From assembly GCA_964551475.1 (NCBI GenBank), contig CAZKCI010000023.1, forward strand, positions 7,289 to 71,288: a stretch of 64,000 bases of DNA, read 5' to 3'. This DNA is from an uncultured bacterium (lineage in GTDB: Bacteria > Auribacterota > Erginobacteria > Erginobacterales > CAZKCI01). This document shows, piece by piece, positions 2,576-58,740 of this stretch (positions are counted from its first letter, which is position 1; the number at the start of each line of letters is the position of its first letter). A model generated the notes under the pieces. The model was not told the DNA's origin and made no database searches. It was given only the letters and a program-made list of their open reading frames with translations. A program made the translations under genes and the position numbers.

Positions 2576-3448
2576 TCAGACGGCGGCTATGCGATAAAAC
2601 CGCGACGACGCGGCCGGTCCTACCAGCACAATCCCCATCGTGAAGAGGTCGACGGCGAGACCGATCCGCTGATCGGCGGCGATCTTCTTCCAGGCCCGGG
2701 CCATTCCTTCCGACCAGGAGATGTCGTCGAAGACCAGGCAGGCGGAGGGCGCGAGACGGGGAAGCAGGGTTTCGAAATACTCGAGCGTCGGCCCTTCCGC
2801 GTGATGACCGTCGACGAAAGCGAATTCGACGGGGTCTTTCCCGCCGAGGATTCCCGGAAGACGGTCTTGGAAACGCCCGGCGACGACCGTCGCCCTCCGG
2901 TCCAGGCCGAGGCGGGAGAGGTTCTCGCGGGCGAGCGCGGCGACCTCCCCTGCCCCTTCCAGTGTCGTCAGCTCGCCCTCTCCATTCAACTCCTGGGCGG
3001 CGGCGAGGTAGGCGGCCGAGAGGCCGAGCGAGGTCCCGAGCTCGAGAGCGATCCGGGGACGCAATTCCCGGATCAGGCGGAAGAGGAGAAGAGCGCGGCG
3101 CGGGCGGGACGCCGAGACCCGGCAGATCTCGCTCACCCGCCGCTCCACGATCATCGGCTCTTCCTTCCCCCCGGAAGGGCCGCCGGGCGAGACCGCTCCC
3201 CAGTCCTCCAGCCGCAGGACCCGGGAAGACGCGGACAGCTCCCGCCGCAACGCTTCGATCCTCCCTCGCCAGGACGACTCCTCGGCTGTCAGAATCCCGT
3301 CGGCGAACGTGGCCAGTCCGCGGACCAGAGCCCGCGCCGCGGTCGCCTCCTCCCGGCCCAGCCGCTTCAGCTCGGTTGAATTCCTCCCGATCGCCCACGC
3401 CCGCCGATAGGCGAGCCGCCACAGGGCCTTGCTTGAGGGGACAGTCAC
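2576..3448 (-). CDS. Class I SAM-dependent methyltransferase (O-methyltransferase family 3-like)
   Basis: Motif I LELGTSLGLSAAYLAAA, downstream acidic motifs (VVAGRF, FAFVDGHH), ~290 aa. Confidence 0.7.
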   Translation of the reverse strand: MTVPSSKALWRLAYRRAWAIGRNSTELKRLGREEATAARALVRGLATFADGILTAEESSWRGRIEALRRELSASSRVLRLEDWGAVSPGGPSGGKEEPMIVERRVSEICRVSASRPRRALLLFRLIRELRPRIALELGTSLGLSAAYLAAAQELNGEGELTTLEGAGEVAALARENLSRLGLDRRATVVAGRFQDRLPGILGGKDPVEFAFVDGHHAEGPTLEYFETLLPRLAPSACLVFDDISWSEGMARAWKKIAADQRIGLAVDLFTMGIVLVGPAASSRFYRIAAV

Positions 3449-5461: not shown

Positions 5462-5575
5462 TGGGTCAGGAGATTGGTCTGGTCTAGGGGTCAGGTTGAT
5501 GGTGCCGGCCGACCTTTGACCTTGCCCATCGACCAAACCACTATCCTTACCCTAACCCATCAACCAGATCCACAT
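5462..5575. repeat. Intergenic imperfect-palindromic repeat element, family A (GGGTYAGG / CCTTACCC units), copy 1
   Basis: gggtcaggagattggtctggtctaggggtcaggttgatggtg...caccatcaacc-like complement ccttaccctaacccatcaacc; homologous copies at ~12310, 38172, 54003, 58607 and a partial copy at 19688. Confidence 0.75.
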
Positions 5576-5601
5576 TGTATATAGCACACTGCGACGCTCT
5601 G

Positions 5602-6558
5602 CTACGAGTGTCGGATTTGATCCTCGACCTCCCGCACGAACCTCCCCGCCACCTCCGGCCAGGTGAGCGTCTCCTGGCGGGCGAGGGCGGCGGAGAGGGA
5701 GGCGCGCAGGGCGGGATCGGCGATCAGGCGGACGATCCCCGACCGCAGGTCGTCGGTGATCAGCGCCTCCTCCCCGTCTTTCAGGGTGCCGGAGACGCGA
5801 CCGGCGAGAGCGACGATCGGCCGCCGGGCGCGGATGTATTCGACCATCTTGACACAGCTGTCGTTGTCCATGGTCAAGACGGCGATGTCGAAAGCCTTGA
5901 TATAGGCGGCGACCTCCCGGGGAGGGACCTCGCCCAGGAAATGCGCGTTGCGGGGAGCGTTCCGGACGAGTTCATCCTCCGCCGGTCCGATCAGATAGAG
6001 TTCGCAGGGAAGCCCCCGCACCGCCTCGATCAGGCGGTCGACCCTTTTCGCCCGGTTGACGATCCCGACATAGCCGACGCGCGACGTCCCCGGAAGGTTT
6101 TTCGGCACAGCGGCGTCGAAATCCTCTTCCACGCCATGGGGGATGAAGACGGCCTTCCTGGACCAGCTTCGGGCTCTTTGAATCCGGGACACGCTGGGTG
6201 ACGAGACCAGGTCCGCCCCTCCCACAGCGATCCTCTCCAACCCCGAGACCAGGCGGCGGCCGTAAAGGCGACCCATGTTTTCGGCGTAATCGTCGATCCA
6301 GTCATGGACCAGATACGACCGGAGAAGGGACCAACGCCGCAAGAGGGCGGGGAGAAATCCGATCGCGCCGGCGGCCACCACCACCCGCGGGCGGAAACGG
6401 ACGAGCGCGGGAATAAAATCCCTCCAGCGCTCGCGGGAGAGGTGGATAACCTCCCAGCCCCGGCCGGCGAGGAGGGGCGGCAGGCGGTGCCAGCGGCGGG
6501 GAGTGGCGCCGGGGCGCATGTGGGTGAGGATCAGGACTCTGAAAGGTTCAAGGTTCAT
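5602..6558 (-). CDS. Glycosyltransferase, GT4/GT1-like (Glycos_transf_1 C-terminal domain)
   Basis: N-terminus FRVLILTH, C-terminal Rossmann-like half; the start codon lies inside a GGTTCA heptamer repeat. Confidence 0.6.
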   Translation of the reverse strand: MNLEPFRVLILTHMRPGATPRRWHRLPPLLAGRGWEVIHLSRERWRDFIPALVRFRPRVVVAAGAIGFLPALLRRWSLLRSYLVHDWIDDYAENMGRLYGRRLVSGLERIAVGGADLVSSPSVSRIQRARSWSRKAVFIPHGVEEDFDAAVPKNLPGTSRVGYVGIVNRAKRVDRLIEAVRGLPCELYLIGPAEDELVRNAPRNAHFLGEVPPREVAAYIKAFDIAVLTMDNDSCVKMVEYIRARRPIVALAGRVSGTLKDGEEALITDDLRSGIVRLIADPALRASLSAALARQETLTWPEVAGRFVREVEDQIRHS

Positions 6559-6665
6559 GGTTCAACGGTTCAAAGGTTGGCTGAAAATGGGATTTGAGAT
6601 TTGAGATTATAGATCTGAGATCCGAGATTTGAGATTAACAGATCTCGGCTGATTACCGATTACCG
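6545..6665. repeat. Tandem heptamer arrays: GGTTCAN x4-5 followed by GAGATTT/GATTTGA units and CTGATTACCGATTACC
   Basis: ggttcaaggttcatggttcaacggttcaaaggtt ... gggatttgagatttgagattatagatctgagatccgagatttgagattaacagatctcggctgattaccgattaccgg; related arrays at 18838, 32060 (GGTTCA type) and 56270 (GAGATT/CTGATTA type). Confidence 0.75.
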
Positions 6666-10379: not shown

Positions 10380-11314
10380 GATTGCGGATCGCGGATGGCG
10401 GATGGCGGATGGCGGAACTCCGCTCTCCGGGCTTTGAAGAAGAGTCCCGTCCCCGTGGCTCGGCGCTGGAAGACAAGATCGAGGTCGCAGATCAGGTTGA
10501 AAACCGGCAAAAACAGGAAGGAATAGATCCGGGTGAGAAGGTCGTGGCGGGGAGAGGAGGAGAGCGAGGAGAGGTAAGCGGTGAGATAGGGGTCGCCAGG
10601 AGAGGCGCTGAGCCCGAGGATCGAGCGGGCGGCGTCGAGGATCCGTCGGTTGAGCTTCTGGGAGAGGCGGTAGAAATACTTTCCGCGGGTGTAGTGGGCA
10701 TTGAGGGGAAGGCCGGCTTCGGCCAGGCGGTCCCGCAACCCCTCGAAGGAGTAGCGCCGAAAATGGCCGTCCTGCATCCCGTCCCAGGACTCCCGGCCGA
10801 CCATGCTGTCCACCGGGGTCTCCTCCATCGCCCGACCGGGCTGATGGCCGGGGACGGATCCGAGGAAGAGTCCGTTCGGCTTGAGCACGCGGCGGATCTC
10901 GCGCAACCCCCGGCGATCGTCCGGGACGTGTTCCAAAAGCTCCGTGCCCAGGGCGACATCGAAAACGGCGTCCCGGAAGCAGAGGAACTGGACATCGCAG
11001 ACCAGGAGAAGGGGGCGGGGAGCGGAGCGCTCCCGGAAACGACGCCGGGCGAAGGAGACGATCTGGGGGGAAAAATCGAAACCGGCGAGAAGCGCCGGAC
11101 GGCCGATCTCCCAGAGGGTGGCCAGGTTGTCGCCCCGTCCGCAGCCGGCGTCGAGGACGGCGCGGGCGGTCTCGCCCTTGAGGAAGGTCTTGAAAGCCTG
11201 GGCGATGTCGCGGGAGAGGAAGACCTTGACCCGGTGGGTCTCCTCCACCCGGCGGACGGAAAGGCCGTCGGTGTAGCCGTACAGGCGGTCGTAATAGTCG
11301 CGCAGTTCCTTCAT
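10376..11314 (-). CDS. Class I SAM-dependent methyltransferase (Methyltransf_11/23-like)
   Basis: VLDAGCGRGDNL motif I, LKPNGLFLGSVP post-II region. Confidence 0.7.
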   Translation of the reverse strand: MKELRDYYDRLYGYTDGLSVRRVEETHRVKVFLSRDIAQAFKTFLKGETARAVLDAGCGRGDNLATLWEIGRPALLAGFDFSPQIVSFARRRFRERSAPRPLLLVCDVQFLCFRDAVFDVALGTELLEHVPDDRRGLREIRRVLKPNGLFLGSVPGHQPGRAMEETPVDSMVGRESWDGMQDGHFRRYSFEGLRDRLAEAGLPLNAHYTRGKYFYRLSQKLNRRILDAARSILGLSASPGDPYLTAYLSSLSSSPRHDLLTRIYSFLFLPVFNLICDLDLVFQRRATGTGLFFKARRAEFRHPPSAIRDPQS

Positions 11315-12309: not shown

Positions 12310-12432
12310 ATAGGTCGATAGGTTAGGGAGAAGAAGCGGGTCTGGTCGATGGGTTAGGGTCAGGTGATGACTCGCCCAGCCGCACCATTAACCCGACCCA
12401 TTTACTAGACCCACTTCTTAACCCAACTCCCC
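12310..12432. repeat. Family A palindromic intergenic repeat, copy 2
   Basis: aggtcgataggttagggagaagaagcgggtctggtcgatgggttagggtcaggtg ... caccattaacccgacccatttactagacccacttcttaacccaactcc. Confidence 0.75.
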
Positions 12433-14945: not shown

Positions 14946-14957
14946 AGGACGGAAGAG

Positions 14958-15062
14958 CTGGAGTACTGAAGTATCGGAGTAATGGAGTATTGGAGTAATG
15001 GAGTAGTGGGGAAAGCTCCGCCTGCGCAGCCCATTACTCCATCACTCCATTACTCCAACACC
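14958..15062. repeat. Heptamer-hairpin repeat, family B (GGAGTAATGGAGTAYTGGAGTAATGGAGTAGTG ... inverted CATTACTCCATCACTCCATTACTCCAACAC), copy 1
   Basis: Tandem TGGAGTA/GGAGTAA heptamers, a short loop, then their reverse complements; homologous copies at 49596 and 52863. Confidence 0.8.
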
Positions 15063-15107
15063 CCTCTGGTTCTCGACCGATCATCAGGGAAATTCGGCGC
15101 CGGTGAA

Positions 15108-16652
15108 TCAGAAGAACCGGGCGGTCCAGCCGAGCCAGGGGGCGGCTTTTCTCATCAGCTCCCGGTCCCGATCGCCCAGGGGCTTGAGGAGAAAGGCCAG
15201 GGCGGCGACGGTCGCGAGGTAGACGACACCCTTGGCGATGAGCCCCGGCAGTCCCCGCAGGGGGATGATCAGGGAGAGAAAGGCGGCGGCGACCGTGGCG
15301 GCGACCACTTTTAGGGTGAAGAGCGCGGGGTAGCGGATGGTGATCCGCGAACCGATCAGGGTGATCTCCCAGACGGTCACCAGCACGCTGGTGATGCCGG
15401 TCGCGATCACCGCTCCCATCGCCCCGTAGCGGGGGATGAGCCAGAAGTAGTTCAGGCCCAGGTTCAGGATGCCCATGGAGAGGCGCAGGAGAAGGATCAG
15501 CCGCTCCTGGTTCAGAACGTAGAGGATCGATGTGTTGAGACCGCCCCCCATCAGGTAGATCACGCAGTAAAACGCGGAGTAAAAGAAGAGGAGGCGGCCG
15601 ACCGGCCGGTAAGCGGAGGAATAGATGGCGTCCACGATCTCCTGGGAGTGGGCGGTCACGAAGACGACGCCGGTGAAACAGAGGATGAGGATGCCCTTGA
15701 ACATCATCTGCCAGGTCTCCGCCATCTTCTCCTCCCCCTTCTGGGTCCGGACTTCGGAGAGGATGGGGACGCCGATTTCGCTGAATCCCGCTCCCAGGGC
15801 CAACCCCAGAGTGGTGAGCAGGCCAAAGGCGACGTTGTAATAACTGGTCTCCTCCAGACGGCCGGTGATCTTGGTGATCAGGAGAATGTCGGCGTGCTTG
15901 CCGAGAAAATAGTTCACGAAGAGGATGACCCAGGAGACGAAGGAAAAGCGCATGATCGGCCCGAACTCCGGCGCGGGGCCGACGGCGTTGAGGAGCGGCC
16001 AGCCCAGCCGCGTGTAGAGGAGGATGGTCAGGGCGAAGATGGCGATCGTGCACCAGTAGAGGGCGATCAGGGCCGTATGCAACTGCGCCAGGGTGGGCGG
16101 CGCACCGCTCCGCGATCGCACGGAAAAGACGATGACAGCGGCGGTGGCAAGATAAATGATTTTGCCCACGATCTCCACGGTGGCGCTGATGCGGTTCTTG
16201 ATCTGGGCGTCGAAGATCTGCTTCCAGAGAACGGAGACATTGGCCAGCGCCACCGAGACGCCGCCCAGCCAGGTGAAGACGGCCTGATCTTCCGCCAAAC
16301 CGAACCAATGGACCAGATGGGTCCGGAAGATGGTGAAGAAGGCGACGGCGGCGAAGGCGGCCAGGACGCGGAGCCCGAGGAGTGAACGGACCAGCGGACC
16401 GGCGCGGGAAGGGTCGCCCGCGTAGCGGGGGAGGTAGACGGAGATCGTCCGCTCCAGTCCCAGCGAGAGGAAAAGCATGGCCGTGGCGCCGAGCGAAAAC
16501 GAGGCCGTCCACAGACCGTATATTTGGGGGCCGAAGCCGTTGGCGATCAGCACCGAGGTGAGGAGGGTGAAGGCCCAGATCCCGAGCTTCCCCGCATGCC
16601 CCCAGAGGAAGCCCCGGCTGAAGCGCGCGGAAAGGTTCTCGGAGACGCTCAC
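15108..16652 (-). CDS. Wzx-like oligosaccharide flippase (MOP superfamily polysaccharide biosynthesis protein)
   Basis: ~14 TM helices over 514 aa, typical PST-family organisation; 4-nt overlap with the downstream GT4. Confidence 0.7.
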   Translation of the reverse strand: MSVSENLSARFSRGFLWGHAGKLGIWAFTLLTSVLIANGFGPQIYGLWTASFSLGATAMLFLSLGLERTISVYLPRYAGDPSRAGPLVRSLLGLRVLAAFAAVAFFTIFRTHLVHWFGLAEDQAVFTWLGGVSVALANVSVLWKQIFDAQIKNRISATVEIVGKIIYLATAAVIVFSVRSRSGAPPTLAQLHTALIALYWCTIAIFALTILLYTRLGWPLLNAVGPAPEFGPIMRFSFVSWVILFVNYFLGKHADILLITKITGRLEETSYYNVAFGLLTTLGLALGAGFSEIGVPILSEVRTQKGEEKMAETWQMMFKGILILCFTGVVFVTAHSQEIVDAIYSSAYRPVGRLLFFYSAFYCVIYLMGGGLNTSILYVLNQERLILLLRLSMGILNLGLNYFWLIPRYGAMGAVIATGITSVLVTVWEITLIGSRITIRYPALFTLKVVAATVAAAFLSLIIPLRGLPGLIAKGVVYLATVAALAFLLKPLGDRDRELMRKAAPWLGWTARFF

Positions 16653-17800
16653 GACCCGGCTACCTCGCGATAGATGGAGAGAAGACGGCGGGCCATCTCC
16701 TCCCAGGTGAAAGACGAGACGCTCTCCCGGGCGCGCCGGCCCAGCGTTTCCCGGACGGAGGGATCACGCAGGCGCCGGAGAGCGGAACGGACAGACACGG
16801 CATCCCGCTTGGGGACGATGAAACCGTTGGCTCCGTCCTCCAGAACGTCGCGGGCGCCGTTGCAGTCGGCGACCACCGCGGGCAGCCCCGAGGCCAGCGC
16901 TTCCAGGAGAACCATGGGGAGTCCCTCGTAGAGGGAGGGGAGGACGAAGAGGTCGGATCCGCAATAGATCTCGGCGAGCGCCTCCAGGTCGCGCACCCGG
17001 CCGCAATCGATCAGGGGGATGGCGCCGGCGCGCTCATGGGCCCAGAGTCTCTCGGCCTCGGAAAGACCGGCGAGGCAGAGCGTCCAATCGCCCGGTTCGG
17101 CGGCCAGCGCCTCGAGAAGATAGGCCAACCCTTTCCGCCAAACCGGCGTCCCGGAGAAGAGGATGACGGGACGATCCGGCGATAGCTGATAACGGGAGCG
17201 GAAGCGAGCCCGACGGGCGGCGTCGGGGCGAAAATGTCCGCTGTCCACGCCGTAGGGCACCACCCGCGGAACGATCCCCAGATGGGCCCGGACGTCCTCG
17301 CCCGCGCCCCGGGAGGGGACGATCACCGCTTCCGCCCGTCTCTGGTAATAGGCTTCCTTGGCGAGGATCGCCGCCGCCTTGACCTTCTGCAGGAAGGAGA
17401 AGACCGCCTTCCCCTCCCGCGCCTCCTCTCTCCACTCCCGGTAAAGGGCGTGGGGAAGACCGTGGACGAAGGTGAGAAGCTTGTAGCGACCGCCGAAGAC
17501 CGCCCGGGCCAGCGCCGGGTGGTAGGCCCAGCGGGCGTGCGAATGGACGATGTCGTAATCCCGGGTGGAGACGAAGCGCTGGAAGCGCCGGACGCCGAAC
17601 CAGGGATCGGCCACCTCCGGAACGGAAAACTGGCGGGGATAGCCCTCGAGGTATGTGAAGTGGCCCTCCCCTCCCCCCCGGCCGTAGAGGAAATCGACCT
17701 CGGCGCCGAGCTTCCTCAGGGCAGAGCCCAGCGATTCGGTGATCCGCCCGATCCCGGTGAAAAGATCGAAGTCAAAACCGGAGTGCATCAATATCTTCAC
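16649..17800 (-). CDS. Glycosyltransferase family 4
   Basis: ...FVLPSLYEGLPMVLLEALASGLPAVVAD (EX7E motif), N-terminal Glyco_trans_4-like domain. Confidence 0.85.
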   Translation of the reverse strand: MKILMHSGFDFDLFTGIGRITESLGSALRKLGAEVDFLYGRGGGEGHFTYLEGYPRQFSVPEVADPWFGVRRFQRFVSTRDYDIVHSHARWAYHPALARAVFGGRYKLLTFVHGLPHALYREWREEAREGKAVFSFLQKVKAAAILAKEAYYQRRAEAVIVPSRGAGEDVRAHLGIVPRVVPYGVDSGHFRPDAARRARFRSRYQLSPDRPVILFSGTPVWRKGLAYLLEALAAEPGDWTLCLAGLSEAERLWAHERAGAIPLIDCGRVRDLEALAEIYCGSDLFVLPSLYEGLPMVLLEALASGLPAVVADCNGARDVLEDGANGFIVPKRDAVSVRSALRRLRDPSVRETLGRRARESVSSFTWEEMARRLLSIYREVAGS

Positions 17801-17861
17801 GGCAACTATCCTCGGCGAAGCGATTCGGCGAGCAAGGCTCCTTCAGCTTCGCTTATATTCT

Positions 17862-18080
17862 AAATCCGAAATACGAATATCGAAATCCGAAACAAACCGA
17901 AAAATTCGAAATTCCGAAACAATGGACAAAAAGATGTCTTCCTCTCTTACGCTGGTTTTGGTCCTGTCACTGGCGGTTTCGAATTTCGGTCATTCGGATT
18001 TGTTTCGGATTTCGATATTCGAGTTTCGAATTTGCCCCGTTGTTACGGATTTCGTTTCCCGATATTCGGATTTTTTCAGC
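17862..18080. repeat. AT-rich island with long imperfect inverted repeat (CGAATATCGAAATCCGAAACAAA ... TTTGTTTCGGATTTCGATATTCG) and multiple TTCGGATTT/CGAAATC heptamer-like units; MITE-like or operator array
   Basis: The 23-nt core of arm 17872-17900 is exactly reverse-complementary to 17997-18022; ~95-nt spacer; extra motif copies 18040-18075; GC content far below surroundings; right arm overlaps the 3' end of the methyltransferase gene. Confidence 0.75.
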
Positions 18081-18820
18081 ACATAGTAGGAGTTCATTCC
18101 CCGCAGCCGGGGGAAGCGGTCGCCCAGCGGCTCCCAGAGGACCTCCAGGCGGTGCTTCAACCACCAGCAGAAGCGGGGGCGGAGAAGAAAGCCCAGGTGG
18201 AGCCGCCGCAGCCAGAGACGCCAGCGGAGGAAGAGCGGGGCATTGACCCGATGGGAGGAAACGATGGCGAGGCCGACCGCCGGCGCGGCCTGCGCCAGGG
18301 CCTGCGGGGAGACGCTCCTCTCCCGGGGGCTGGTGCCGTCCCAGAAGTTGAAGGCGTGGGGATTCGGCTCGTGGAGGAGGGCCTCGCCGCCGGGCTGGAG
18401 CAGGGCGGAGATCGCCTGGAGAGAGGCCGCGAGATCCTCGAGATGGTGGAGGACGCCGAGAGAGACGACGAAGTCGAAGACGCCTTCCCGCAGGGGAAGC
18501 GGGCGGGAGAGATCGCACTGAATGAAATGCCCCCCGGGGAAGGCTTTCGCCGCGTGGGAGAGCATGGCCGAGGAGATGTCGGCGCCGAGATAGAAGGGGG
18601 AGAGGCCGGCCGCCCGGAAATAGCGCCGCGGGGAGACAGCCGGTCCGCAGCCGATTTCCAGGATGCGCAAGCGCGGGCCGCCGGCGACGCGGGCCTCGAA
18701 GCGGCGGAAGAGGAAGGAGACGTTGGGATAGTGCCAGATGTATTCCCTCTCCATCTCCCGCAGGCGGGCGGGGGTGGTCTCCTCGAAGTAGGCCTTTTCA
18801 CTTCTCGTCCAGTTGTCCAT
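17990..18820 (-). CDS. Class I SAM-dependent methyltransferase
   Basis: LEIGCGPA motif I, VVSLGVLHHL, LLQPGGEALL; the last ~30 codons are encoded by the AT-rich repeat element. Confidence 0.7.
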   Translation of the reverse strand: MDNWTRSEKAYFEETTPARLREMEREYIWHYPNVSFLFRRFEARVAGGPRLRILEIGCGPAVSPRRYFRAAGLSPFYLGADISSAMLSHAAKAFPGGHFIQCDLSRPLPLREGVFDFVVSLGVLHHLEDLAASLQAISALLQPGGEALLHEPNPHAFNFWDGTSPRERSVSPQALAQAAPAVGLAIVSSHRVNAPLFLRWRLWLRRLHLGFLLRPRFCWWLKHRLEVLWEPLGDRFPRLRGMNSYYVLKKSEYRETKSVTTGQIRNSNIEIRNKSE

Positions 18821-18837
18821 AATAACGAAAACCGATC

Positions 18838-18928
18838 GGGTTCAGCGGTTCACGGTTCAGGGGTTCACGGTTATTTATGATTTTTCCCAACCGCTGAACC
18901 CTTGAACCGTGGAACCTTTTAACCTAAT
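18838..18928. repeat. GGTTCA-heptamer inverted repeat, family C, copy 2
   Basis: gggttcagcggttcacggttcaggggttcacggtt ... aaccgctgaacccttgaaccgtggaacc (reverse-complementary arms). Confidence 0.75.
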
Positions 18929-32059: not shown

Positions 32060-32126
32060 AAACGGTTCACGGTTCAACGGCTTACGGTGAGTTTGTCATT
32101 CCTCCAACCGTTAAACCTTTGAACCG
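32060..32126. repeat. GGTTCA-heptamer inverted repeat, family C, copy 3
   Basis: acggttcacggttcaacggcttacgg ... ccaaccgttaaacctttgaaccgg. Confidence 0.7.
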
Positions 32127-34988: not shown

Positions 34989-35157
34989 GCTAGAAAGCGA
35001 TGCTCGGTAACAGTAAAGAGTCAGAAAAAGAAGTTATGTATGACCGAAATGATTTCGTTCCCGTTCACATCCGCGTTCACGGAGACGCGACGGGTACGTG
35101 AACGTGTACGAGAACGTGAACGTTTACGTGTGCGCAAACGCGTAACCGTGCGTAACC

Positions 35158-37140
35158 TCACGTATCCTCATGTAACCTCTTTTTTCCCCGCAGGCACACC
35201 AGCGTATAGGCGAAGAGCACCGCGGAGGCGATAATCCCCGGCATGAGATACGAGGGCCTCTCCAGGCGGTCCATGAAGGGGAGGATGATCCGGTCCTTCC
35301 AAGCGGGGATGACCACCGGAGGGGGGCGGGACAAGCGCTCCTGAAGACGCCCCAGGGCGCCATCGTCCGAGCTGAGCTCCTGGTTGACGCGGAGCACCTC
35401 CCGGGCCGGGATGACCCTGATCCGGGGGTCAAAATCGGACGCGGGGCGGCGGTAGAGACCCCAGTAGTAGAACTCGTTCTCGTAGAGCATCGGCCGGTAG
35501 GAGAGATAGGAGGGGCAGGCGAAAGCGGTCGCCCGGCAGAGGCGGAAGGTCTCGGCCATCCCCAGTTGCTCCTTGGTGTGGTAGAACCAGGCGCCGTGGG
35601 CGATCCCGATGTAGTCGGAATACATGATGTAGGGTCGGTGGTGGGAGTTGATATAGGCGTCGAGCTCCTTCCAATCGTGGAAGAAGGACATGGTCGGCCA
35701 GAGGTCCCACTGCTGCATGTTCATCGTCGCCACCTGGCCCCGGAGCTGGTTGCGCTCTTCCCACAGACCATAGCGGTAGGGCCCCTGGCGGCTCAAACGA
35801 TAGTCCGACAGGCGAAAAAAGTTGAGCGCCGCCACGGCGACGGCCAGGGCGCAGAGAGGCCAGACCGCCCGGCGGAAACGGGAAAGAAGCGCGGAGACGC
35901 CGAGGCCCGTGATGACCGCGGCGAGAAGAAGGGCGGAGTAGTAGTGACGCGCCACCTGCGTCCCGCTGGTGTAGTTCATGATCACCGCCACTCCGATGAA
36001 GACCGCGGCCAGGCGAAGGCTCTCATCGTCCGCCGAATCTTTTCGGAGCAGGCGGACGAGAAGAAAGGCCAGCGCGGCGACGACCGCCACCAGGACCGGC
36101 CAGCCGTCGCTGTCCTTCAGGTGGCGGAAGAAGTAGAGGTGGTCGGCCGGAAGAGAGCCGGTGTGCGAGGCGTTGTCCTGGAAGGACTCCAGGAGGCGGC
36201 GGGGAAAAGGAACGTATCCGACCCGGGCAAAATCGATGGCGAAGGAGTCGGCGGAGGGGAATCGGCTGATCACCTCCCGGTTCTGGGCAAAAACTCGGAA
36301 CGAGGCGTAGTTCACCCCTTCCCAGGCGGCCAGGGGCAGGATGAAACCGAGGCTGAAGACGGCGAGGAGGAGGATCTGGCGGAGGGGACGGAAACGGCGG
36401 GCGGCGGCGACGAGGCGCCGGAGGAGCTCGAAGAGGCAGACGAAGAGAGCCGGCCAGACCAGGGAAATCGAGTAATAGACGGAGACGCCGAGAAAAACGC
36501 CGAAGCAGAGCGCGCGCAGGACGCTGTCGCGGCGGGTGGCGCCGGGAGCGGCCAGGAGGGCGAGGCAAAACCAGAGGCCGCCGCCCGCCGTGTGCAGGAC
36601 CCAGGTGGAGTAGCGGACCGCCCAGGGGGAGACCGCGAGCAACAAGGCGGCGGCGCAGCCGGCGGGGAAACCTCCCAGGCGACGGGCCAGGAAGAAGACG
36701 ACGAGCACGGTCGCCGTTCCCAGGACGGCCATCCAGATGTGCAGCCGCCGGATGTTCTCGTAGGGGTCGTTCGTGCGCAGATTAAAAACGGCGCTGACCA
36801 GGCCGATCTCCAGGATGAAGAGCGGCTTGGCGAAGGAGGTCACCTTCTTGTTGACATCCCAGTGGGAGAGATAAGCCGCGGCCAGAAAGGGCGCCTGGAA
36901 GCGGGGGAAATAGTATTTCTCCGCCCGCAGGATCTTCTCAAAGTTGTAGACGTGATCGGGGATGTGAACGCGGAACTCGACGTCGTCGCCCCCAACCTGG
37001 GAGAAATGCTCGAGCCCCCAGAAACGGAAAAGAGCGGCGAGAGCCACGCTGGCCAGGGGGACCAGCCAGCGCCAGCGGCGACGCGGAGAGAGGACAGCGG
37101 GGGAAGCAGCGGGGGGTGAGGCTGTGGCGGCGACGATCAT
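35158..37140 (-). CDS. GT-C fold membrane glycosyltransferase (ArnT/PMT-like) with C-terminal YENEFYYWG domain; paralogue of the two modules in 23719..27426
   Basis: GGDDVEF first-loop motif, FAKPLFILEIG, SPWAVRYSTW, C-terminal PYIMYSDYIGIAHGAWFYHTKE...LYENEFYYWGLYRRPASDFDPRIRVIP. Confidence 0.65.
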   Translation of the reverse strand: MIVAATASPPAASPAVLSPRRRWRWLVPLASVALAALFRFWGLEHFSQVGGDDVEFRVHIPDHVYNFEKILRAEKYYFPRFQAPFLAAAYLSHWDVNKKVTSFAKPLFILEIGLVSAVFNLRTNDPYENIRRLHIWMAVLGTATVLVVFFLARRLGGFPAGCAAALLLAVSPWAVRYSTWVLHTAGGGLWFCLALLAAPGATRRDSVLRALCFGVFLGVSVYYSISLVWPALFVCLFELLRRLVAAARRFRPLRQILLLAVFSLGFILPLAAWEGVNYASFRVFAQNREVISRFPSADSFAIDFARVGYVPFPRRLLESFQDNASHTGSLPADHLYFFRHLKDSDGWPVLVAVVAALAFLLVRLLRKDSADDESLRLAAVFIGVAVIMNYTSGTQVARHYYSALLLAAVITGLGVSALLSRFRRAVWPLCALAVAVAALNFFRLSDYRLSRQGPYRYGLWEERNQLRGQVATMNMQQWDLWPTMSFFHDWKELDAYINSHHRPYIMYSDYIGIAHGAWFYHTKEQLGMAETFRLCRATAFACPSYLSYRPMLYENEFYYWGLYRRPASDFDPRIRVIPAREVLRVNQELSSDDGALGRLQERLSRPPPVVIPAWKDRIILPFMDRLERPSYLMPGIIASAVLFAYTLVCLRGKKRLHEDT

Positions 37141-38171: not shown

Positions 38172-38229
38172 TGGTCGATGGGTAAGGGAGAGGAAGTGGG
38201 TTTGGTCGACCAGGCCCACTTCCTAATTA
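38172..38229. repeat. Family A repeat, short copy (ggtcgatgggtaagggagaggaagtgggtttggtcgacc...cccacttcc)
   Basis: Shares the GATGGGTAAGGG / GAAGTGGGTTTGG units with copies 54003 and 58607. Confidence 0.6.
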
Positions 38230-38231
38230 TT

Positions 38232-39769: not shown

Positions 39770-39895
39770 GCAATGAACTACGAATTACGCGAATTTCGCG
39801 AATTAAACTCGACTTATCTCTACGAGTCCTTGGGGTATATGTTGCCTGGTCCCGCCGGGCCGAATTCGCGTAATTCGCGAAATTCGTAGTTAAAT
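39770..39895. repeat. Long inverted repeat in divergent promoter region (AACTACGAATTACGCGAATTTCGCGAATTAAACTCGAC ... GAATTCGCGTAATTCGCGAAATTCGTAGTTAAATTGCC)
   Basis: ~30-bp arms built of ATTCGCG/AATTACG units separated by ~45 nt; related ATTCGCG-unit tracts at 40830-40900, 44320-44345, 51795-51815. Confidence 0.7.
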
Positions 39896-40786: not shown

Positions 40787-40905
40787 CACGCCGGCGCGCC
40801 GTAGCGCTATAGCGCGCAGGCACGAATTTGCACGAAGGGGGCTTGACTCACAGTTAGCCCAGTTTCAATACGTGATAATTCGTGAAAATTCGTGGACAGT
40901 CCGGG

Positions 40906-44319: not shown

Positions 44320-44510
44320 GCCATCCGCGATTATTCGCGCGTTATTCGCGGTTAATTTTTAGCCGGGCAGTCTCGGATCGCGGCGAGACAGATTCTTCTA
44401 GTCCATCGTGGGAGGGGCGTCTCGCCCCGATCCAGAGAGGCCGGCCCGGATCGCGGCAGGAATGCCGCTCCCACAGGTTCGGTGTCGCACCCAGAGGGCG
44501 TTCCCACAGT
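44320..44510. repeat. Composite repeat block: ATTCGCG units (cgcgattattcgcgcgttattcgcggttaatt) + family D hairpin (copy 2) + extra D half-site
   Basis: Lies in a 475-nt noncoding gap; gtgggaggggcgtctcgccccgatcc...ggatcgcggcaggaatgccgctcccaca then gggcgttcccacag. Confidence 0.7.
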
Positions 44511-48728: not shown

Positions 48729-48795
48729 TTGTGGGAGGGGCATTCTTGCCCCGATCCAGGCCGACCCGGATCGCGACAGGAATGTCGCTCCCACA
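48729..48795. repeat. Family D hairpin repeat, copy 3
   Basis: tgtgggaggggcattcttgccccgatccaggccgacccggatcgcgacaggaatgtcgctcccaca. Confidence 0.75.
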
Positions 48796-48834
48796 GAAGG
48801 GCAAGACAAGACACGCGCCACGGCGTTTGGATCA

Positions 48835-49595: not shown

Positions 49596-49715
49596 CGGAG
49601 TACTGGAGTACTGGAGTAATGGAGTGTTGAAAAGACTCCGGCTTCGCTTCCCATTACTCCAATGCTCCATCACTCCATTGTTTTGTTTCATTTCATCACT
49701 CCACCACTCCCTTAC
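49596..49715. repeat. Family B heptamer-hairpin repeat, copy 2
   Basis: ggagtactggagtactggagtaatggagtgttg ... cccattactccaatgctccatcactccattg ... cactccaccactcccttactcc. Confidence 0.8.
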
Positions 49716-50734
49716 TCCTTTTGTTTTCTATCGGGGACCGGCAGTTTCTCCGGATCGTAGAAGACGATCTGCGACCCCTGCCGCTCGAAGCTGAAGTCCA
49801 CCTCGAGGAGCGAGGAGAGGGCCCGGCGCACGCCCTCCTGGGCCGGGGGTTCGGCGTAGAGGAGAAGGAATCCGCCCCCGCCCGCCCCCAGAAGCTTGCC
49901 GCCCACCGCGCCGGCGCTCAGGGCCGCTCCATACATGGCGTCGATCGCGGGGCTGGTGACGCCGGTCCCCAGGGATTTCTTAATCTTCCAGGACTCGCCC
50001 AGCAGGCCGCCGAATTCCTTGAGTTTCTCCCTGCCTCCTCCGAGCAGGTCCCTCCCCTGCGCGGCCAGCGCCGACATCGTCTTCAGGTAAGCGGTGTTGT
50101 CCCCGATCGCCCGCACGTGGCGCTTCTGGATGTTGTCCGAGTAGCGCTGGATCCCGGTGTAGAAGAGGAGCAGGTTGTTTTCCAGTTCCCGGAGAGCTTC
50201 CGGAGAGCAGACCAGCGGCTCCACCCTCGCCTCGTCCCGGCCCTTGAACTCGATGTAGTTGAAGCCGCCGCAGGCGGCGGCGTACTGGTCCTGGAAGCCC
50301 ACGCTCTCCTTGATCAACTCCCGCTCGATGGTCACCGCCTCGGCGGCGAGGCGCTGGGCGGAGACCCGGGTCGAGCGATAGGCGTAGAGGGCGTTGAGGA
50401 GGCCGACCACGAAGGAGGAGGATGTCCCCAACCCCGTCCGGGCGGGCAGATCGGAGAAGTAGTTGATCTCGACGTGGGAGGTGATCCCCATAAATTCGAG
50501 ACAGGCCCGGACCGCCGGGTGCTCGATCTCGGAGACCTGGTGGAGAAGCTCGGTCTTGGAGTAGGAGACCTTGATCCGGTAGTCGAAGAAATCGCTCAGG
50601 TAGCTGACGGTGAGATAGCAGTATTTGTCCACCGTGGTGGAGAGGACCGCCCCCCCGTGGCGGGAGAAGTGCTCCGGGAAATCGGTTCCGCCGCCCAGGA
50701 AGCTGATCCGGACCGGTGTCTGAGAAATGATCAT
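49712..50734 (-). CDS. GHMP-family sugar kinase (D-glycero-D-manno-heptose 7-phosphate kinase HddA-like)
   Basis: PVRISFLGGGTD, GHMP motif PARTGLGTSSSFVVG, C-terminal GAGGGGF. Confidence 0.75.
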   Translation of the reverse strand: MIISQTPVRISFLGGGTDFPEHFSRHGGAVLSTTVDKYCYLTVSYLSDFFDYRIKVSYSKTELLHQVSEIEHPAVRACLEFMGITSHVEINYFSDLPARTGLGTSSSFVVGLLNALYAYRSTRVSAQRLAAEAVTIERELIKESVGFQDQYAAACGGFNYIEFKGRDEARVEPLVCSPEALRELENNLLLFYTGIQRYSDNIQKRHVRAIGDNTAYLKTMSALAAQGRDLLGGGREKLKEFGGLLGESWKIKKSLGTGVTSPAIDAMYGAALSAGAVGGKLLGAGGGGFLLLYAEPPAQEGVRRALSSLLEVDFSFERQGSQIVFYDPEKLPVPDRKQKE

Positions 50735-50771: not shown

Positions 50772-50840
50772 TCTGTAGGCCGGTTCTGTGAACCGGCGGC
50801 CAGGCCCCGTCGCGCCCGATCACAGATCGGGCCTACAGAA
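50772..50840. repeat. Family H REP-like palindromic element (TGTAGGCCGGTTCTGYGAACCGGCGGCCAGG...GGGCCTACAGAA), copy 1
   Basis: Nested palindromes tgtaggcc/ggcctaca and ccggttc/gaaccgg; second copy at 60840. Confidence 0.75.
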
Positions 50841-51657
50841 AGCTCGCCTCAGCAGGGCGCCCTCTGGCTTGGAGTGATAAATAGTTTTTGATTGTATCAA
50901 TAGTTCTCGGGACTGCGCAATAGCCCACAAGCTTTTCGTTGTTGATCTCGTAGGCCTCCCGGGGAACGGAGGGGGAAGCGTAGCGTAGGGGCTTTTTCAG
51001 CATTTCCCGGATCTCCCGGATCGTCACCGTCCCCGTCCCGCAGAGGTTGACGGTCTCGCCCCAGATCCCTTTCCCGGCCAGTTCCAGAGCGGACTGGGCC
51101 GCAAAGTCGACCGGGAGATACTGATAGCGGGAATCCTCATGGACCCGCAGGGGGCGAGCGTTGATCAAGTCGAAAACCGGATTCTTCTTCAGGCCCGGTC
51201 CCAGCACGCCGCCCAGGCGCACGATCAGCCGGCGGGGAGCGTAGCGGCGGACCAGGAGTTCGCCCAGGTATTTGTGCAGGCCGTAGGGAGAGAGACGGTC
51301 GCCGTCGATCGGCGCCTCCTCGCGGTTGTTTTCCGGGTTTTCGTGGTCGGGATAGACGTCGATGGTGGAAACGTGGAGATATCCGCGGAAGCGGAAGTCG
51401 TGGAGCGCCTGGAGAACGGAGACGACGGAAAGCTCAAACTCCTCGAGCGGCTTCTCGGCGGCGAGATACTTCCTGGAGTTCCCGTCGGCGTTGACCAGCA
51501 GATCGCACTCCTTCCCCCGGAAAGAGGCGTAGTCGTCGAGATCGACGCATTCGGCCGCCAGGCCTTTTTTTTGCGCCGCCCGCAGGAAGGCCGAGCCGAC
51601 GAAGCCCTTGCCGCCCAGAACGAAGATTTTCCTGAGATTATTCATTCGTAAGTTCAA
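50833..51657 (-). CDS. NAD(P)-dependent sugar-nucleotide reductase/epimerase, RmlD-like short SDR
   Basis: KIFVLGGKGFVGSAF, ...SPYGLHKYLGE (YxxxK), ~274 aa. Confidence 0.6.
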   Translation of the reverse strand: MNLRMNNLRKIFVLGGKGFVGSAFLRAAQKKGLAAECVDLDDYASFRGKECDLLVNADGNSRKYLAAEKPLEEFELSVVSVLQALHDFRFRGYLHVSTIDVYPDHENPENNREEAPIDGDRLSPYGLHKYLGELLVRRYAPRRLIVRLGGVLGPGLKKNPVFDLINARPLRVHEDSRYQYLPVDFAAQSALELAGKGIWGETVNLCGTGTVTIREIREMLKKPLRYASPSVPREAYEINNEKLVGYCAVPRTIDTIKNYLSLQARGRPAEASFL

Positions 51658-51694: not shown

Positions 51695-51861
51695 CGTGGG
51701 AGCGACATTCTTGTCGCGATCCGGGCGAGTGGGGATCGCGGCAGGAATGCCGCTCCCACAGATGGCCTGGAGAGCGCGTTAGAATACTCCCGCAGCTATT
51801 CGCGAGAATTCGCGGTTAATTCTTGGGCCGGGCCGGATCGGGGCGAGACGCCCCTCCCACA
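51695..51861. repeat. Family D hairpin repeat copy 4 (perfect hairpin) + ATTCGCG units + reverse-oriented D half-site
   Basis: gtgggagcgacattcttgtcgcgatcc-gggcgagtgg-ggatcgcggcaggaatgccgctcccaca; ctattcgcgagaattcgcggttaatt; ggatcggggcgagacgcccctcccaca. Confidence 0.75.
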
Positions 51862-52862: not shown

Positions 52863-53010
52863 TGGAGTAATGGAGTGTTGGAGTAAATGAGCACAGGAGT
52901 AATGGAGTGTTGGAGTAATGGAGTACTGGAAAACATGGCCTCGCGGCCCATTACTCCACTACTCCATTACTCCACATTGTTCCCTACTCCATTACTCCAA
53001 TTCTGCATCA
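52863..53010. repeat. Family B heptamer-hairpin repeat, copy 3
   Basis: ctggagtaatggagtgttggagtaaatgagcacaggagtaatggagtgttggagtaatggagtactgg ... cccattactccactactccattactccacattg...ctactccattactccaattc. Confidence 0.8.
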
Positions 53011-54002: not shown

Positions 54003-54127
54003 TGGGTTAGGGTTATGAAGTGGGTTTGGCAGATGGGTCAGGTTAATGGTGTTGGCCTCGGCGAGCCGCACCATCAACTTCTCCCATGTACCAAACCAAC
54101 TTCTTGACCCTTACCCATCGACCCAAA
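54003..54127. repeat. Family A palindromic repeat, copy 4
   Basis: tgggttagggttatgaagtgggtttggcagatgggtcaggttaatggtg ... caccatcaacttctcccatgtaccaaaccaacttcttgacccttacccatcgacc. Confidence 0.8.
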
Positions 54128-54151
54128 CAGTGTTCCAGGGAAAGATAGCCG

Positions 54152-55090: not shown

Positions 55091-55223
55091 GGGAACAAAC
55101 TCCAAAATACAAACCACAAATTCCAAACAAAATTCAAATCACAACTTACCATCACCGATGAGCCGGTTTGTTTGTGATTTGGCTTTGTAATTTGTTTGGA
55201 ATTTGTTCTTTGTGGGTTGTTAT

Positions 55224-56269: not shown

Positions 56270-56370
56270 GAGATTAGAGATTACCGATTACTGTTCACCG
56301 ATCGCCGCTCCTTGATCTGAAATCTGAGATTTTAGATACTGATAACTGATCGCTGATTACTGATCACTGT
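56270..56370. repeat. Heptamer array GAGATTA/CTGATTA/TGATCAC (family G)
   Basis: gagattagagattaccgattactg...tctgaaatctgagattttagatactgataactgatcgctgattactgatcactg; related to 6585-6665, 2525-2568, 51661-51690. Confidence 0.7.
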
Positions 56371-58606: not shown

Positions 58607-58740
58607 GTAGATAGGTTAGGGTTAAGAGGTGGGTCTGGTAAATGGGTTAGGGTTAGGTGGAGCTCGCAGACCGCGAGCCAGGCTACACCATCAACCTTAC
58701 CCATTCACCAAACCCACTTCTTTACCCTTACCCATCGACT
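58607..58740. repeat. Family A palindromic repeat, copy 5
   Basis: gtagataggttagggttaagaggtgggtctggtaaatgggttagggttaggtgg ... caccatcaaccttacccattcaccaaacccacttctttacccttacccatcgac. Confidence 0.8.

Follow-up and report, generated by a model that had tools for sequence, protein, structure and literature searches.

What is the AT-rich island that lies at the end of a methyltransferase gene in an uncultured bacterium of the Auribacterota, and what is conserved in it? The DNA analyzed, hereafter the window, is a stretch of 64,000 nucleotides from contig CAZKCI010000023.1 (assembly GCA_964551475.1). The island, at positions 17862–18079, lies between a methyltransferase (MT) gene and a glycosyltransferase (GT) gene and is referred to below as the window element. 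A sequence-only reading of this locus had taken it for a MITE-like insertion (MITE, miniature inverted-repeat transposable element), which would have rewired the end of the MT gene, possibly created a promoter and carried a small secreted peptide in its loop. From the analysis presented here the window element is very probably a copy of a dispersed, non-coding family of foldbacks built from arrays of seven-base units (heptads), a copy that generates by-products where it stands.

Structure of the window element

The GC content of 100-nt windows over 17800–18100 is 0.34–0.48, against 0.65–0.74 in the flanks and a mean of 0.632 for the window, so that the low-GC, AT-rich island proposed from the sequence alone is indeed present. 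A repeat search delimits two inverted-repeat arms of 53 nt each (17862–17914 and 17981–18033), 81% complementary and 66 nt apart, and reveals families of direct repeats of 11–13 nt whose spacing of approximately 20 nt corresponds to 7-nt units. The first arm, A-rich on the plus strand, consists of the heptads AAATCCG, AAATACG, AATATCG and AAATCCG followed by AAAC, AAACCG, AAAAATTCG and AAATTC (nhmmer arm profile, E 2.2e-12). The second arm is T-rich, is made of complementary heptads (nhmmer E 4.6e-15) and contains at 17999–18021 the core of the family, TTTGTTTCGGATTTCGATATTCG, which is the exact reverse complement of the 23-mer CGAATATCGAAATCCGAAACAAA at 17874–17896; the exactly complementary arms described earlier thus exist, a few bases away from where they had been placed. 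Between the arms lies a tip, or loop, of 66 nt (17915–17980). With at most one mismatch, the 12-mer TTTCGGATTTCG occurs six times against 0.91 expected, and five of the six occurrences are inside the island.

The additional repeat units that had been noticed beside the arms correspond to a partial third array of the T type (TTGTTACGGATTTCGTTTCCCGATATTCGGATTT, 18040–18079), which is 76% identical to 18000–18033 (nhmmer E 0.015). It has no partner arm, remains outside the main stem in all folds and is either a tandem duplicate or the remnant of a second element. The fold itself is strong on either strand, each of which forms a stem of approximately 50 bp: the minimum free energy of the RNA is −80.7 kcal/mol for the minus strand (z −6.4) and −82.2 kcal/mol for the plus strand (z −7.3), that of the DNA is −53.5 (z −7.6), and none of the shuffled sequences equalled the RNA or DNA energies. 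Scanning 72 kb of source-genome sequence with the nhmmer arm profile yielded this copy only.

A dispersed family of heptad-array foldbacks

Further copies of the arms, which the earlier reading had proposed to look for, were found both in a related genome (see below) and at large. The pattern TTTGTTTCGGATTTCGNNNTTCG, with 20 specified bases, was scanned on JGI metagenome contigs and is present in at least 120 of them, from soils, sediments and waters. The flanks are unrelated in all of the 120 contigs listed, and the GC content of the contigs is evenly spread from 0.30 to 0.70. Since there are approximately 1e12 (4^20) possible 20-mers, few chance matches would be expected; moreover, the listed matches show the whole architecture beyond the search pattern. 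The same pattern is carried by 16 IMG/VR contigs flagged as viral.

This architecture is common to the 37 elements that were aligned. A full copy measures approximately 130–170 nt and comprises an A-arm of about seven to eight seven-base units, a short unconserved tip and a T-arm with units of the complementary kind. The A-side consensus reads AAATCCG, AAATNCG, AANNNCG, AAATNCG, AAAC, AAATTC, AAA..CC, AAA.T.C,.AAT...C and.AAAC before the tip, and the T-side after it GTTTTG ... TTTGNATTTGTTTCGGATTTCGANNTTCGNATTTCGGATTT. In other words, the A-arm units are CGAA plus three variable bases (AAATCCG, AAGCACG, AATATCG, AAATTCG), followed by the irregular junction AAACAAAT and by units of the CAAAT type, and the inner region common to the copies contains GGTCATT and CAAAAC/GTTTTG. 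The median distance from core to core is 81 nt, and the family stays AT-rich even in hosts of 68% GC.

Gene context, as judged from heuristic open reading frame (ORF) calls on the metagenome loci, could be scored for 34 copies, of which 24 lie between co-directional, 7 between convergent and 3 between divergent genes, usually 0–60 nt from both neighbors. The 150 nearest ORFs match 157 Pfam families, headed by GT4 (5), class II aminoacyl-tRNA synthetases (3) and PF05635 (2). The window has no match in Rfam 15 at gathering thresholds, an E-value scan of the element returned only far-sub-threshold matches to miRNA-precursor hairpins, and a scan of 12 large loci found no Rfam family other than the tRNAs of one contig (L146). 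A BLAST search of plasmids with the element gave no match, although the low-complexity filter may have masked the query. Keyword searches of the literature recovered only papers on Geobacter and Beggiatoa and general reviews, and the heptad-array foldback family is apparently undescribed.

The tips differ from host to host, being short AT-rich loops where GC is low and GC-rich stems with T runs in several high-GC hosts. Large, near-perfect and unrelated hairpins are nested in the tips of L020, L034, L038, L048, L057, L115 and L125 (that of L034 measures 218 nt, at −186 kcal/mol), and either other hairpin repeats may land preferentially in the tip, or the arms may flank pre-existing hairpins. 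In L031 the tip (approximately 2890–3250) contains, inside a CGAAAT foldback, an ORF matching PF05635 (23S-rRNA-IVS/four-helix-bundle, E 1e-9), and PF05635 ORFs also adjoin half-elements in L012 and L123; this arrangement recalls rRNA intervening sequences, in which an ORF of this type is flanked by a stem. In the IMG/VR contig L146 (5–941) a CGAAAT foldback lies within a cluster of five tRNA genes.

Conservation of heptads and polarity

As the copies were chosen by an exact core pattern, conservation of the core is given by construction, and the conservation tests therefore use positions outside it. Polarity was assessed on the 86 T-cores for which 400 nt of sequence could be examined to either side: an A-core lies upstream of 57 of them and downstream of none, while 29 have no partner. 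The order of the arms is thus always A-arm, tip, T-arm (57:0). Inside the arms CGAA is repeated at intervals of 7 nt and hardly varies, whereas the other two to three positions vary without compensation. The three variable positions of a heptad are drawn from a small repertoire (ATC, ATT, GCA, TAT, ACT), whose members are not arranged in the same order in both arms of an element. Indeed, the identity of mirrored units is at the chance level (4/48 vs. 4.8 expected and 5/48 vs. 6.3 expected), and over the 21 nt outside the core an arm is 62.1% complementary to its own partner and 62.4 ± 1.2% complementary to the partners of other elements.

RNAalifold, run on the 37 elements, missed the long stem because arms and tips misalign, and was replaced by this register-anchored comparison and by a gapped comparison of arm against arm. 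In the latter, the outer 28 nt show no excess of complementarity to the own partner (p 0.9). No strand-specific excess of RNA stability or of G:U pairs was detected among the 24 co-directional contexts (12 vs. 12), nor any strand asymmetry of either kind among 23 hairpins of the window. Absolute polarity, together with arms that are no more complementary to their own partner than to those of other elements, suggests that it is the heptads, and not the hairpin, that are conserved. Therefore, the conserved objects are the heptads and their convergent arrangement, and pairing beyond the shared motif is not conserved.

The junction in related genomes

Close orthologues of the MT are rare: only three were found among 5.8 billion clustered proteins (75, 72 and 63% identity), all of them metagenomic and all with the same gene neighborhood. 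They align up to ...GMNxYYVLKK and then diverge into tails of approximately 26 residues, of which that of the window begins SEYRETKSV... and the others SQTPSNKSQTKSKTQNTKT.... The MT–GT spacer of L001 and of L004/L008 contains a foldback with an A-rich arm (units of the CAAAC/TCCCAAA type), a GC-rich tip that includes the MT stop codon, and a T-rich arm (TTTGGGA units); in L005 the A-rich arm and the tip are present up to the contig end. All orthologous MT ORFs enter the A-rich arm and terminate near the tip, and as they share both the junction element and a repeat-encoded tail, the end of the gene was rewired before these lineages split. The comparison proposed earlier, that of orthologous C-termini, hence gives a divided answer: the tail of the window MT is not conserved, but the orthologues carry repeat-encoded tails of their own. 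Likewise, a repeat element does supply the tail, but its insertion is neither recent nor private to this genome, the orthologous junctions being occupied as well.

The arms at the orthologous sites are only 53–60% identical to those of the window (arm profile, E 0.01 to 0.17). The TTTGGGA/CAAAC-type element is related to but distinct from the window subfamily; subfamilies have probably turned over at this junction, where some element has stood since before the split of the four lineages.

A much closer relative of the window element stands at a different site of L008, a metagenome-assembled genome whose MT is 73% identical and whose syntenic block was compared by blastn. At 18437–18612 of L008, the junction of a UbiE-like methyltransferase gene and a GT1 gene, the arms are 84% (A-arm, 18437–18489) and 79% (T-arm) identical to those of the window, and the tips cannot be aligned. 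The nhmmer arm profile gives E values from 1e-12 to 1e-15 for the window and L008 copies. For comparison, the orthologous MT genes of the two genomes are 58.5% identical at 4-fold sites and 77.7% over coding DNA. Here too the upstream ORF enters the A-rich arm (...KSDLRKSETRNSRSETNPKFEILKQRKRG*). The orthologous junction of the window (10380–10416) has no foldback and contains instead five tandem GC-rich heptads, CGCCATC, which encode the C-terminal tail of the UbiE-like methyltransferase (RHPPSAIRDPQS) and adjoin the GTG start of the next gene. These two junctions indicate that such sites hold heptad arrays in these genomes, with the type of array turning over. We also considered that the window element and the L001/L004 element are orthologous and have diverged in situ, every unit showing C:G to G:C flips, and downgraded this reading because of the much closer CGAAAT-type copy at another site of L008. 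Subfamily replacement or conversion at the MT–GT junction is more likely, although it is not distinguishable from in-situ divergence.

Arms resembling the L001/L004 MT–GT element also occur in the window itself, in a CAAAC/TTTG-type foldback at 55095–55213 to which the CGAAAT arm profile is blind. On the other side of the MT gene, the divergent spacer between two methyltransferase genes contains a foldback array of GGTTCA octads (18839–18924) that is kept in L001 (2895–2985) and L004 (1795–1880); in L005, a more distant relative, this spacer is taken by another inverted repeat (GGTTGCGCAG.CGTC.CG). Additional GGTTCA arrays are found at 6543–6580 and 32062–32125 of the window.

Interpretation and alternative explanations

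What would keep heptads in place but not their pairing? A tentative answer, which we find attractive but somewhat short of probable, is that a sequence-specific factor which maintains or copies the element uses the heptads as its recognition modules. Such a factor, either a trans-acting mobilizing enzyme or a cooperative DNA- or RNA-binding protein, would recognize the heptads one by one, and the element would be retained and copied through that recognition. The two arrays would have to face each other, and the hairpin would be a consequence and not the selected feature. At the MT gene the element would have displaced the stop codon, with the ribosome reading the A-rich arm as a low-complexity tail of 26 residues, and the MT–GT transcript would fold an interrupted, A:U-rich stem of approximately 50 bp between the cistrons, which could alter mRNA decay or read-through of MT–GT. 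In enterobacteria, the hairpin RNAs of ERIC and REP repeats can change mRNA stability and read-through. A narrower proposal, speculative and rather doubtful in our judgment, is that the convergent CGAA-heptad arrays are cooperative binding sites, either for a ribbon-helix-helix protein of the omega/ParG kind or for a new mobilizing enzyme that leaves no duplication. If true, the element would be a cross-phylum mobile or regulatory system, and the heptanucleotide arrays of many unit types at the junctions of these genomes would be explained.

Several observations weigh against recognition by a factor that copies the element. Mobility is deduced from the distribution; no clean pair of filled and empty sites was found for the CGAAAT family, and inspection of the 37 aligned copies revealed no target-site duplication outside the first or last heptads, the ends being ragged and varying by whole heptads. 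Among the 150 nearest ORFs there is neither a transposase family nor an identified recognizing protein, the neighbors being ordinary housekeeping genes. The spread across lineages is deduced from the range of GC contents and from the unrelated flanks of the metagenome contigs. Literature searches with arm strings matched only primers, a negative result that extends, like those from Rfam, no further than the content of the collections searched. Finally, the inner 28 nt of the arms show, in the gapped test, a weak excess of complementarity to their own partner (p 0.014), and many tips in high-GC hosts resemble a GC-rich terminator stem followed by a T run, which fits a role at the RNA level. The former may reflect a constraint on pairing close to the tip, but the composition that both arms share with their host could also produce it.

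Such a role would mean that the intercistronic hairpin is itself selected, as an mRNA stabilizer or processing site of the ERIC/REP kind or as an attenuator or terminator working in both directions, the heptad arms being elaborations of its A-tract and U-tract. The strong hairpin of the window element, the weak excess of self-complementarity in the inner arm and the stems with T runs in the tips of L017, L019, L028, L030, L033, L044 and L119 are all in line with it, as are the invariant A-rich-then-U-rich polarity, which a bidirectional terminator requires, and the position of most copies between co-directional or convergent genes, near stop and start codons. We nevertheless consider it a rather doubtful explanation, given that the outer heptads show no compensatory variation, that the sense strand has no excess of stability or G:U pairs, that 29 of the 86 cores lack a partner arm and that the window copy contains no canonical terminator; in addition, the downstream gene starts 5–60 nt after many copies, where efficient termination would leave no room for a promoter. 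The absence of covariation combined with a motif kept every 7 bp and a shuffled unit order agrees with operator arrays in double-stranded DNA, in which each heptad would cooperatively bind one dimer of a host regulator or nucleoid protein. Strictly convergent orientation, the existence of half-elements, the variable distance between arrays, the many hepta- and octad arrays of other units in the same genomes (one of them kept in a divergent MT/MT promoter region) and the precedent of Geobacter metallireducens (PMC2700814) all agree with this. Operators of this kind are nonetheless unlikely: no universal bacterial reader of CGAA every 7 bp is known, yet the arm occurs in hosts of GC 0.30–0.70; the copies adjoin housekeeping genes that are unrelated and have no functional theme in common, mostly between co-directional genes and not at promoters; and the diversity of unit types in one genome would demand many regulators.

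Two further explanations have very little probability left. A recent, genome-private MITE with a new promoter and a loop-encoded secreted peptide would account for a dispersed family with inverted arms and for an MT that enters an arm, but it is largely refuted by the orthologous junctions, which already contain an element and a repeat-encoded tail; no target-site duplication was found in the family, nor a transposase among the nearest ORFs, and neither promoter nor peptide is supported at the locus (see below). Replication slippage of heptanucleotide repeats, with no common descent and no function, is just as improbable and is refuted as the sole explanation. Heptanucleotides are the commonest class of long simple-sequence repeats in prokaryotes, according to the account of Mrazek (2007) given in PMC4679880, unit number and order vary among the copies, and CGCCATC heptads occupy the window site where L008 has a CGAAAT foldback. 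Slippage is the probable cause of the differing unit numbers. It does not account for an irregular signature of 20 bases (TTTG + TTTCGGA + TTTCG...) that is exact in at least 120 unrelated contigs, for the recurrence of the inner region and of the invariant polarity, or for arms at non-orthologous sites that are more alike than synonymous sites.

Readings as an integron attC site, a CRISPR or an iteron were ruled out by sequence features. The arms end in AAATCCG ... CGGATTT, the string GTTTCGG does not fit GTTRRRY (attC core RYYYAAC ... GTTRRRY), and the flanking genes are syntenic biosynthetic genes and not cassettes.

Comparison with known repeat families

The closest precedent is provided by the paired hepta- and octanucleotide sites of G. 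metallireducens, themselves unexplained, whose classes 1–3 were described as "putative global regulator binding sites" (Aklujkar et al. 2009, PMC2700814) and for which a role of IHF/HU was guessed (PMC2700814). As here, they are intergenic pairs of sites on opposite strands, each with three to five tandem units of 7–9 nt at variable distance, present in dozens of copies per genome and also inside operons such as proB/proA (PMC2700814). They differ in their units (GTTGCTYN, TCTCCGTS[Y] and MTYCTGA vs. CGAANNN) and in being reported as unique to one species, whereas at least 120 unrelated metagenome contigs carry the present family. That paper reports no analysis of either polarity or covariation between arms (PMC2700814).

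With ERIC/IRU, Ypal and REPIN/BIME the family shares imperfect palindromes of 100–170 nt that are strictly intergenic, often between co-transcribed genes, located at different positions in related species, with arms better conserved than neutral sites and without target-site duplication. In contrast to ERIC and REPIN, the present arms are arrays of 7-nt units in shuffled order without pairing covariation. In contrast to REP and REPIN, they are AT-rich and have no internal palindrome, a GC-rich palindrome of 20–40 nt with a GTAG-like head is absent, and no RAYT gene is known for the family; its distribution over host GC is also far wider than that of any known ERIC or REP family. The bacterial MITEs (Correia/NEMIS, RUP, BOX) are likewise small, AT-rich and multicopy with inverted arms, insert at gene ends and can extend ORFs or add regulatory signals. 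With approximately 170–220 nt and 53-nt arms, 81% complementary, the window element is within the size of such elements (less than about 500 bp, with terminal inverted repeats). The label of MITE given to it earlier thus holds for the inverted arms, the small size and the dispersed copies. It fails for target-site duplication and for defined terminal nucleotides, no transposase or parent insertion sequence was found among the 150 nearest ORFs, and the internal sequences of the copies are not homologous to one another.

Heptanucleotide tandem repeats, namely the STRR of cyanobacteria and the TAACTGA arrays of Beggiatoaceae, Cyanobacteria and Bacteroidetes, are also intergenic 7-nt units near start codons (MacGregor 2015, PMC4679880), with a patchy distribution across phyla and no known transfer mechanism, but they are almost always direct, a single inverted case having been found in 170 sets (PMC4679880). 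The present family has two facing arrays with fixed polarity and a conserved irregular unit order. Operator arrays of ribbon-helix-helix proteins also consist of contiguous, partly conserved units of 7–8 bp in direct and inverted orientation, namely the 7-bp heptads of the omega repressor of pSM19035, ACTC plus 4 bp for ParG at parH, and the 8-bp metboxes of MetJ; they are bound cooperatively, and orientation matters. These are plasmid or operon operators with the cognate protein encoded nearby, whereas the present copies, for which no cognate protein is known, are scattered beside unrelated genes. Eukaryotic foldback (FB) transposons resemble the family in their long inverted arms of short tandem repeats and their variable middle, but belong to another domain of life, have much longer arms and, in some copies, a known transposase.

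REP, ERIC and MITE families are known, but each described family is confined to a limited bacterial group, and selection is usually assumed to act on the hairpin or on the ends bound by the transposase. The present family is set apart by its occurrence in at least 120 unrelated contigs at GC 0.30–0.70, its AT-richness in hosts of 68% GC, its absolute polarity and the lack of arm covariation, features that point to recognition of seven-base modules by a factor either present very widely or moving together with the element. Confirmation would provide an approach to the excess of heptanucleotide arrays in bacterial genomes, so far unexplained, and to the "global regulator sites" of Geobacter. It would also warn annotators that low-complexity C-terminal tails rich in K/S/T/N/E and mini-ORFs rich in F/L/I, where they stand at gene junctions of such genomes, are artefacts of read-through.

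Flanking genes and open reading frames

Both flanking genes are on the minus strand, within a long polysaccharide-biosynthesis cluster. The ORF of the S-adenosylmethionine-dependent MT (17990–18820, 276 residues) has a conserved body (18071–18820, residues 1–250) that matches Pfam Methyltransf_11/23/25 with E values of 1e-14 to 1e-16 and aligns with its orthologues. Conservation stops at ...YYVLKK (residue 250), and the last 26 codons (18070–17993), which with the stop codon occupy 17990–18070 (SEYRETKSVTTGQIRNSNIEIRNKSE*), come from the extra array and the arm. The repeat-encoded end that had been suspected for this protein is therefore real, and the tail is shown to be read-through into the repeat arm. 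Among the copies of the family a long ORF enters the arm at 18 of 79 arm entries; as this is a minority, the tail is an occasional side effect. The downstream gene (16649–17800) encodes a family 4 glycosyltransferase starting at GTG 17800 or ATG 17788, 62–74 nt past the window element, and in L001, L004 and L008 the element is likewise followed by this gene.

On the plus strand, an ORF of 54 codons (17922–18086) begins in the tip and translates the tip plus the T-rich arms, which accounts for its richness in F/L/I/V/S. The ORF that had been proposed as a secreted peptide does exist; it was described then as lacking a clear ribosome-binding site, and there is no Shine-Dalgarno sequence before ATG 17922. 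A peptide gene is another matter, with no Pfam match, a tip for which neither L008 nor the other family copies show conservation and no gene called in the MT–GT spacer by the source annotation, which is that of a 173-kb contig of JGI metagenome 3300036982, and we judge the mini-ORF to be spurious. The promoter suggested for the leftward operon finds no counterpart either, a consensus scan of 17600–18300 detecting no sigma-70-like sequence. In the same region the scan detected two terminator-like sites, where chance would give 1.1; both fall outside the island, in the coding sequence on its flanks, and no intrinsic terminator (GC-rich stem of 5–20 bp, loop of 3–8, U tract) is placed in the window element.

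Other repeat arrays

Foldback arrays of a different unit, the octad GGAGTAAT, are located at 14959–15061, 49597–49720 and 52863–52999 of the window, the GGAGTA units preceding the TACTCC units. The octad reads as a Shine-Dalgarno-like GGAG with an overlapping stop/start TAATG, and its complement, ACTC plus 4 bp, resembles the box spacing of ParG at parH. The orthologous spacer of L008 contains nothing that corresponds to the copy at 14959; when the region 14946–15107 was compared with L008 as a possible filled and empty site, the spacers differed and no clean insertion signature was seen. The octad triplet also occurs in five IMG/VR contigs, and among 50 matches to GGTTCANN in viral contigs are runs with a period of 24 nt, which have the appearance of coding repeats.

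Long hairpins of some kind occupy many intergenic gaps of the window. A separate dispersed family of approximately 130 nt, GGTTAGGG..GGTGGGTCTGGT..ATGGGTTAGGG, looks REPIN-like and is found at 12320–12430, 54010–54140 and 58620–58730 and in L008 at 16205–16409, with partial copies at 38200–38231 and 5540–5590 of the window; one copy has kept its position in both the window and L008. GC-rich hairpins of REP-like appearance (GTGGGAGCGACATTCYTGTCGCGATCC, CTGTAGGCC...) lie at 48750–48815, 51720–51790 and 50795–50865, and also in L001 (2750–2850) and L004 (1680–1745); we take them to be reminiscent of REP sequences of the Pseudomonas type. Arrays of further short units, mostly inverted pairs filling intergenic gaps, occur at 2526–2560, 6591–6665, 35096–35179, 39781–39886, 40787–40905, 44326–44354 and 56320–56369, the units being AGTGATC, GATTTGA, ACGTGA, CGAATTWCG, AATTCGTGA, CGCGGTTATT and ACTGATC. 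Finally, the family contigs L011–L130 contain 85 heptanucleotide arrays of other units in 608 kb, mostly of period 7, and the GGTTGCT units of L028 resemble the class 1 unit of Geobacter, GTTGCTYN.

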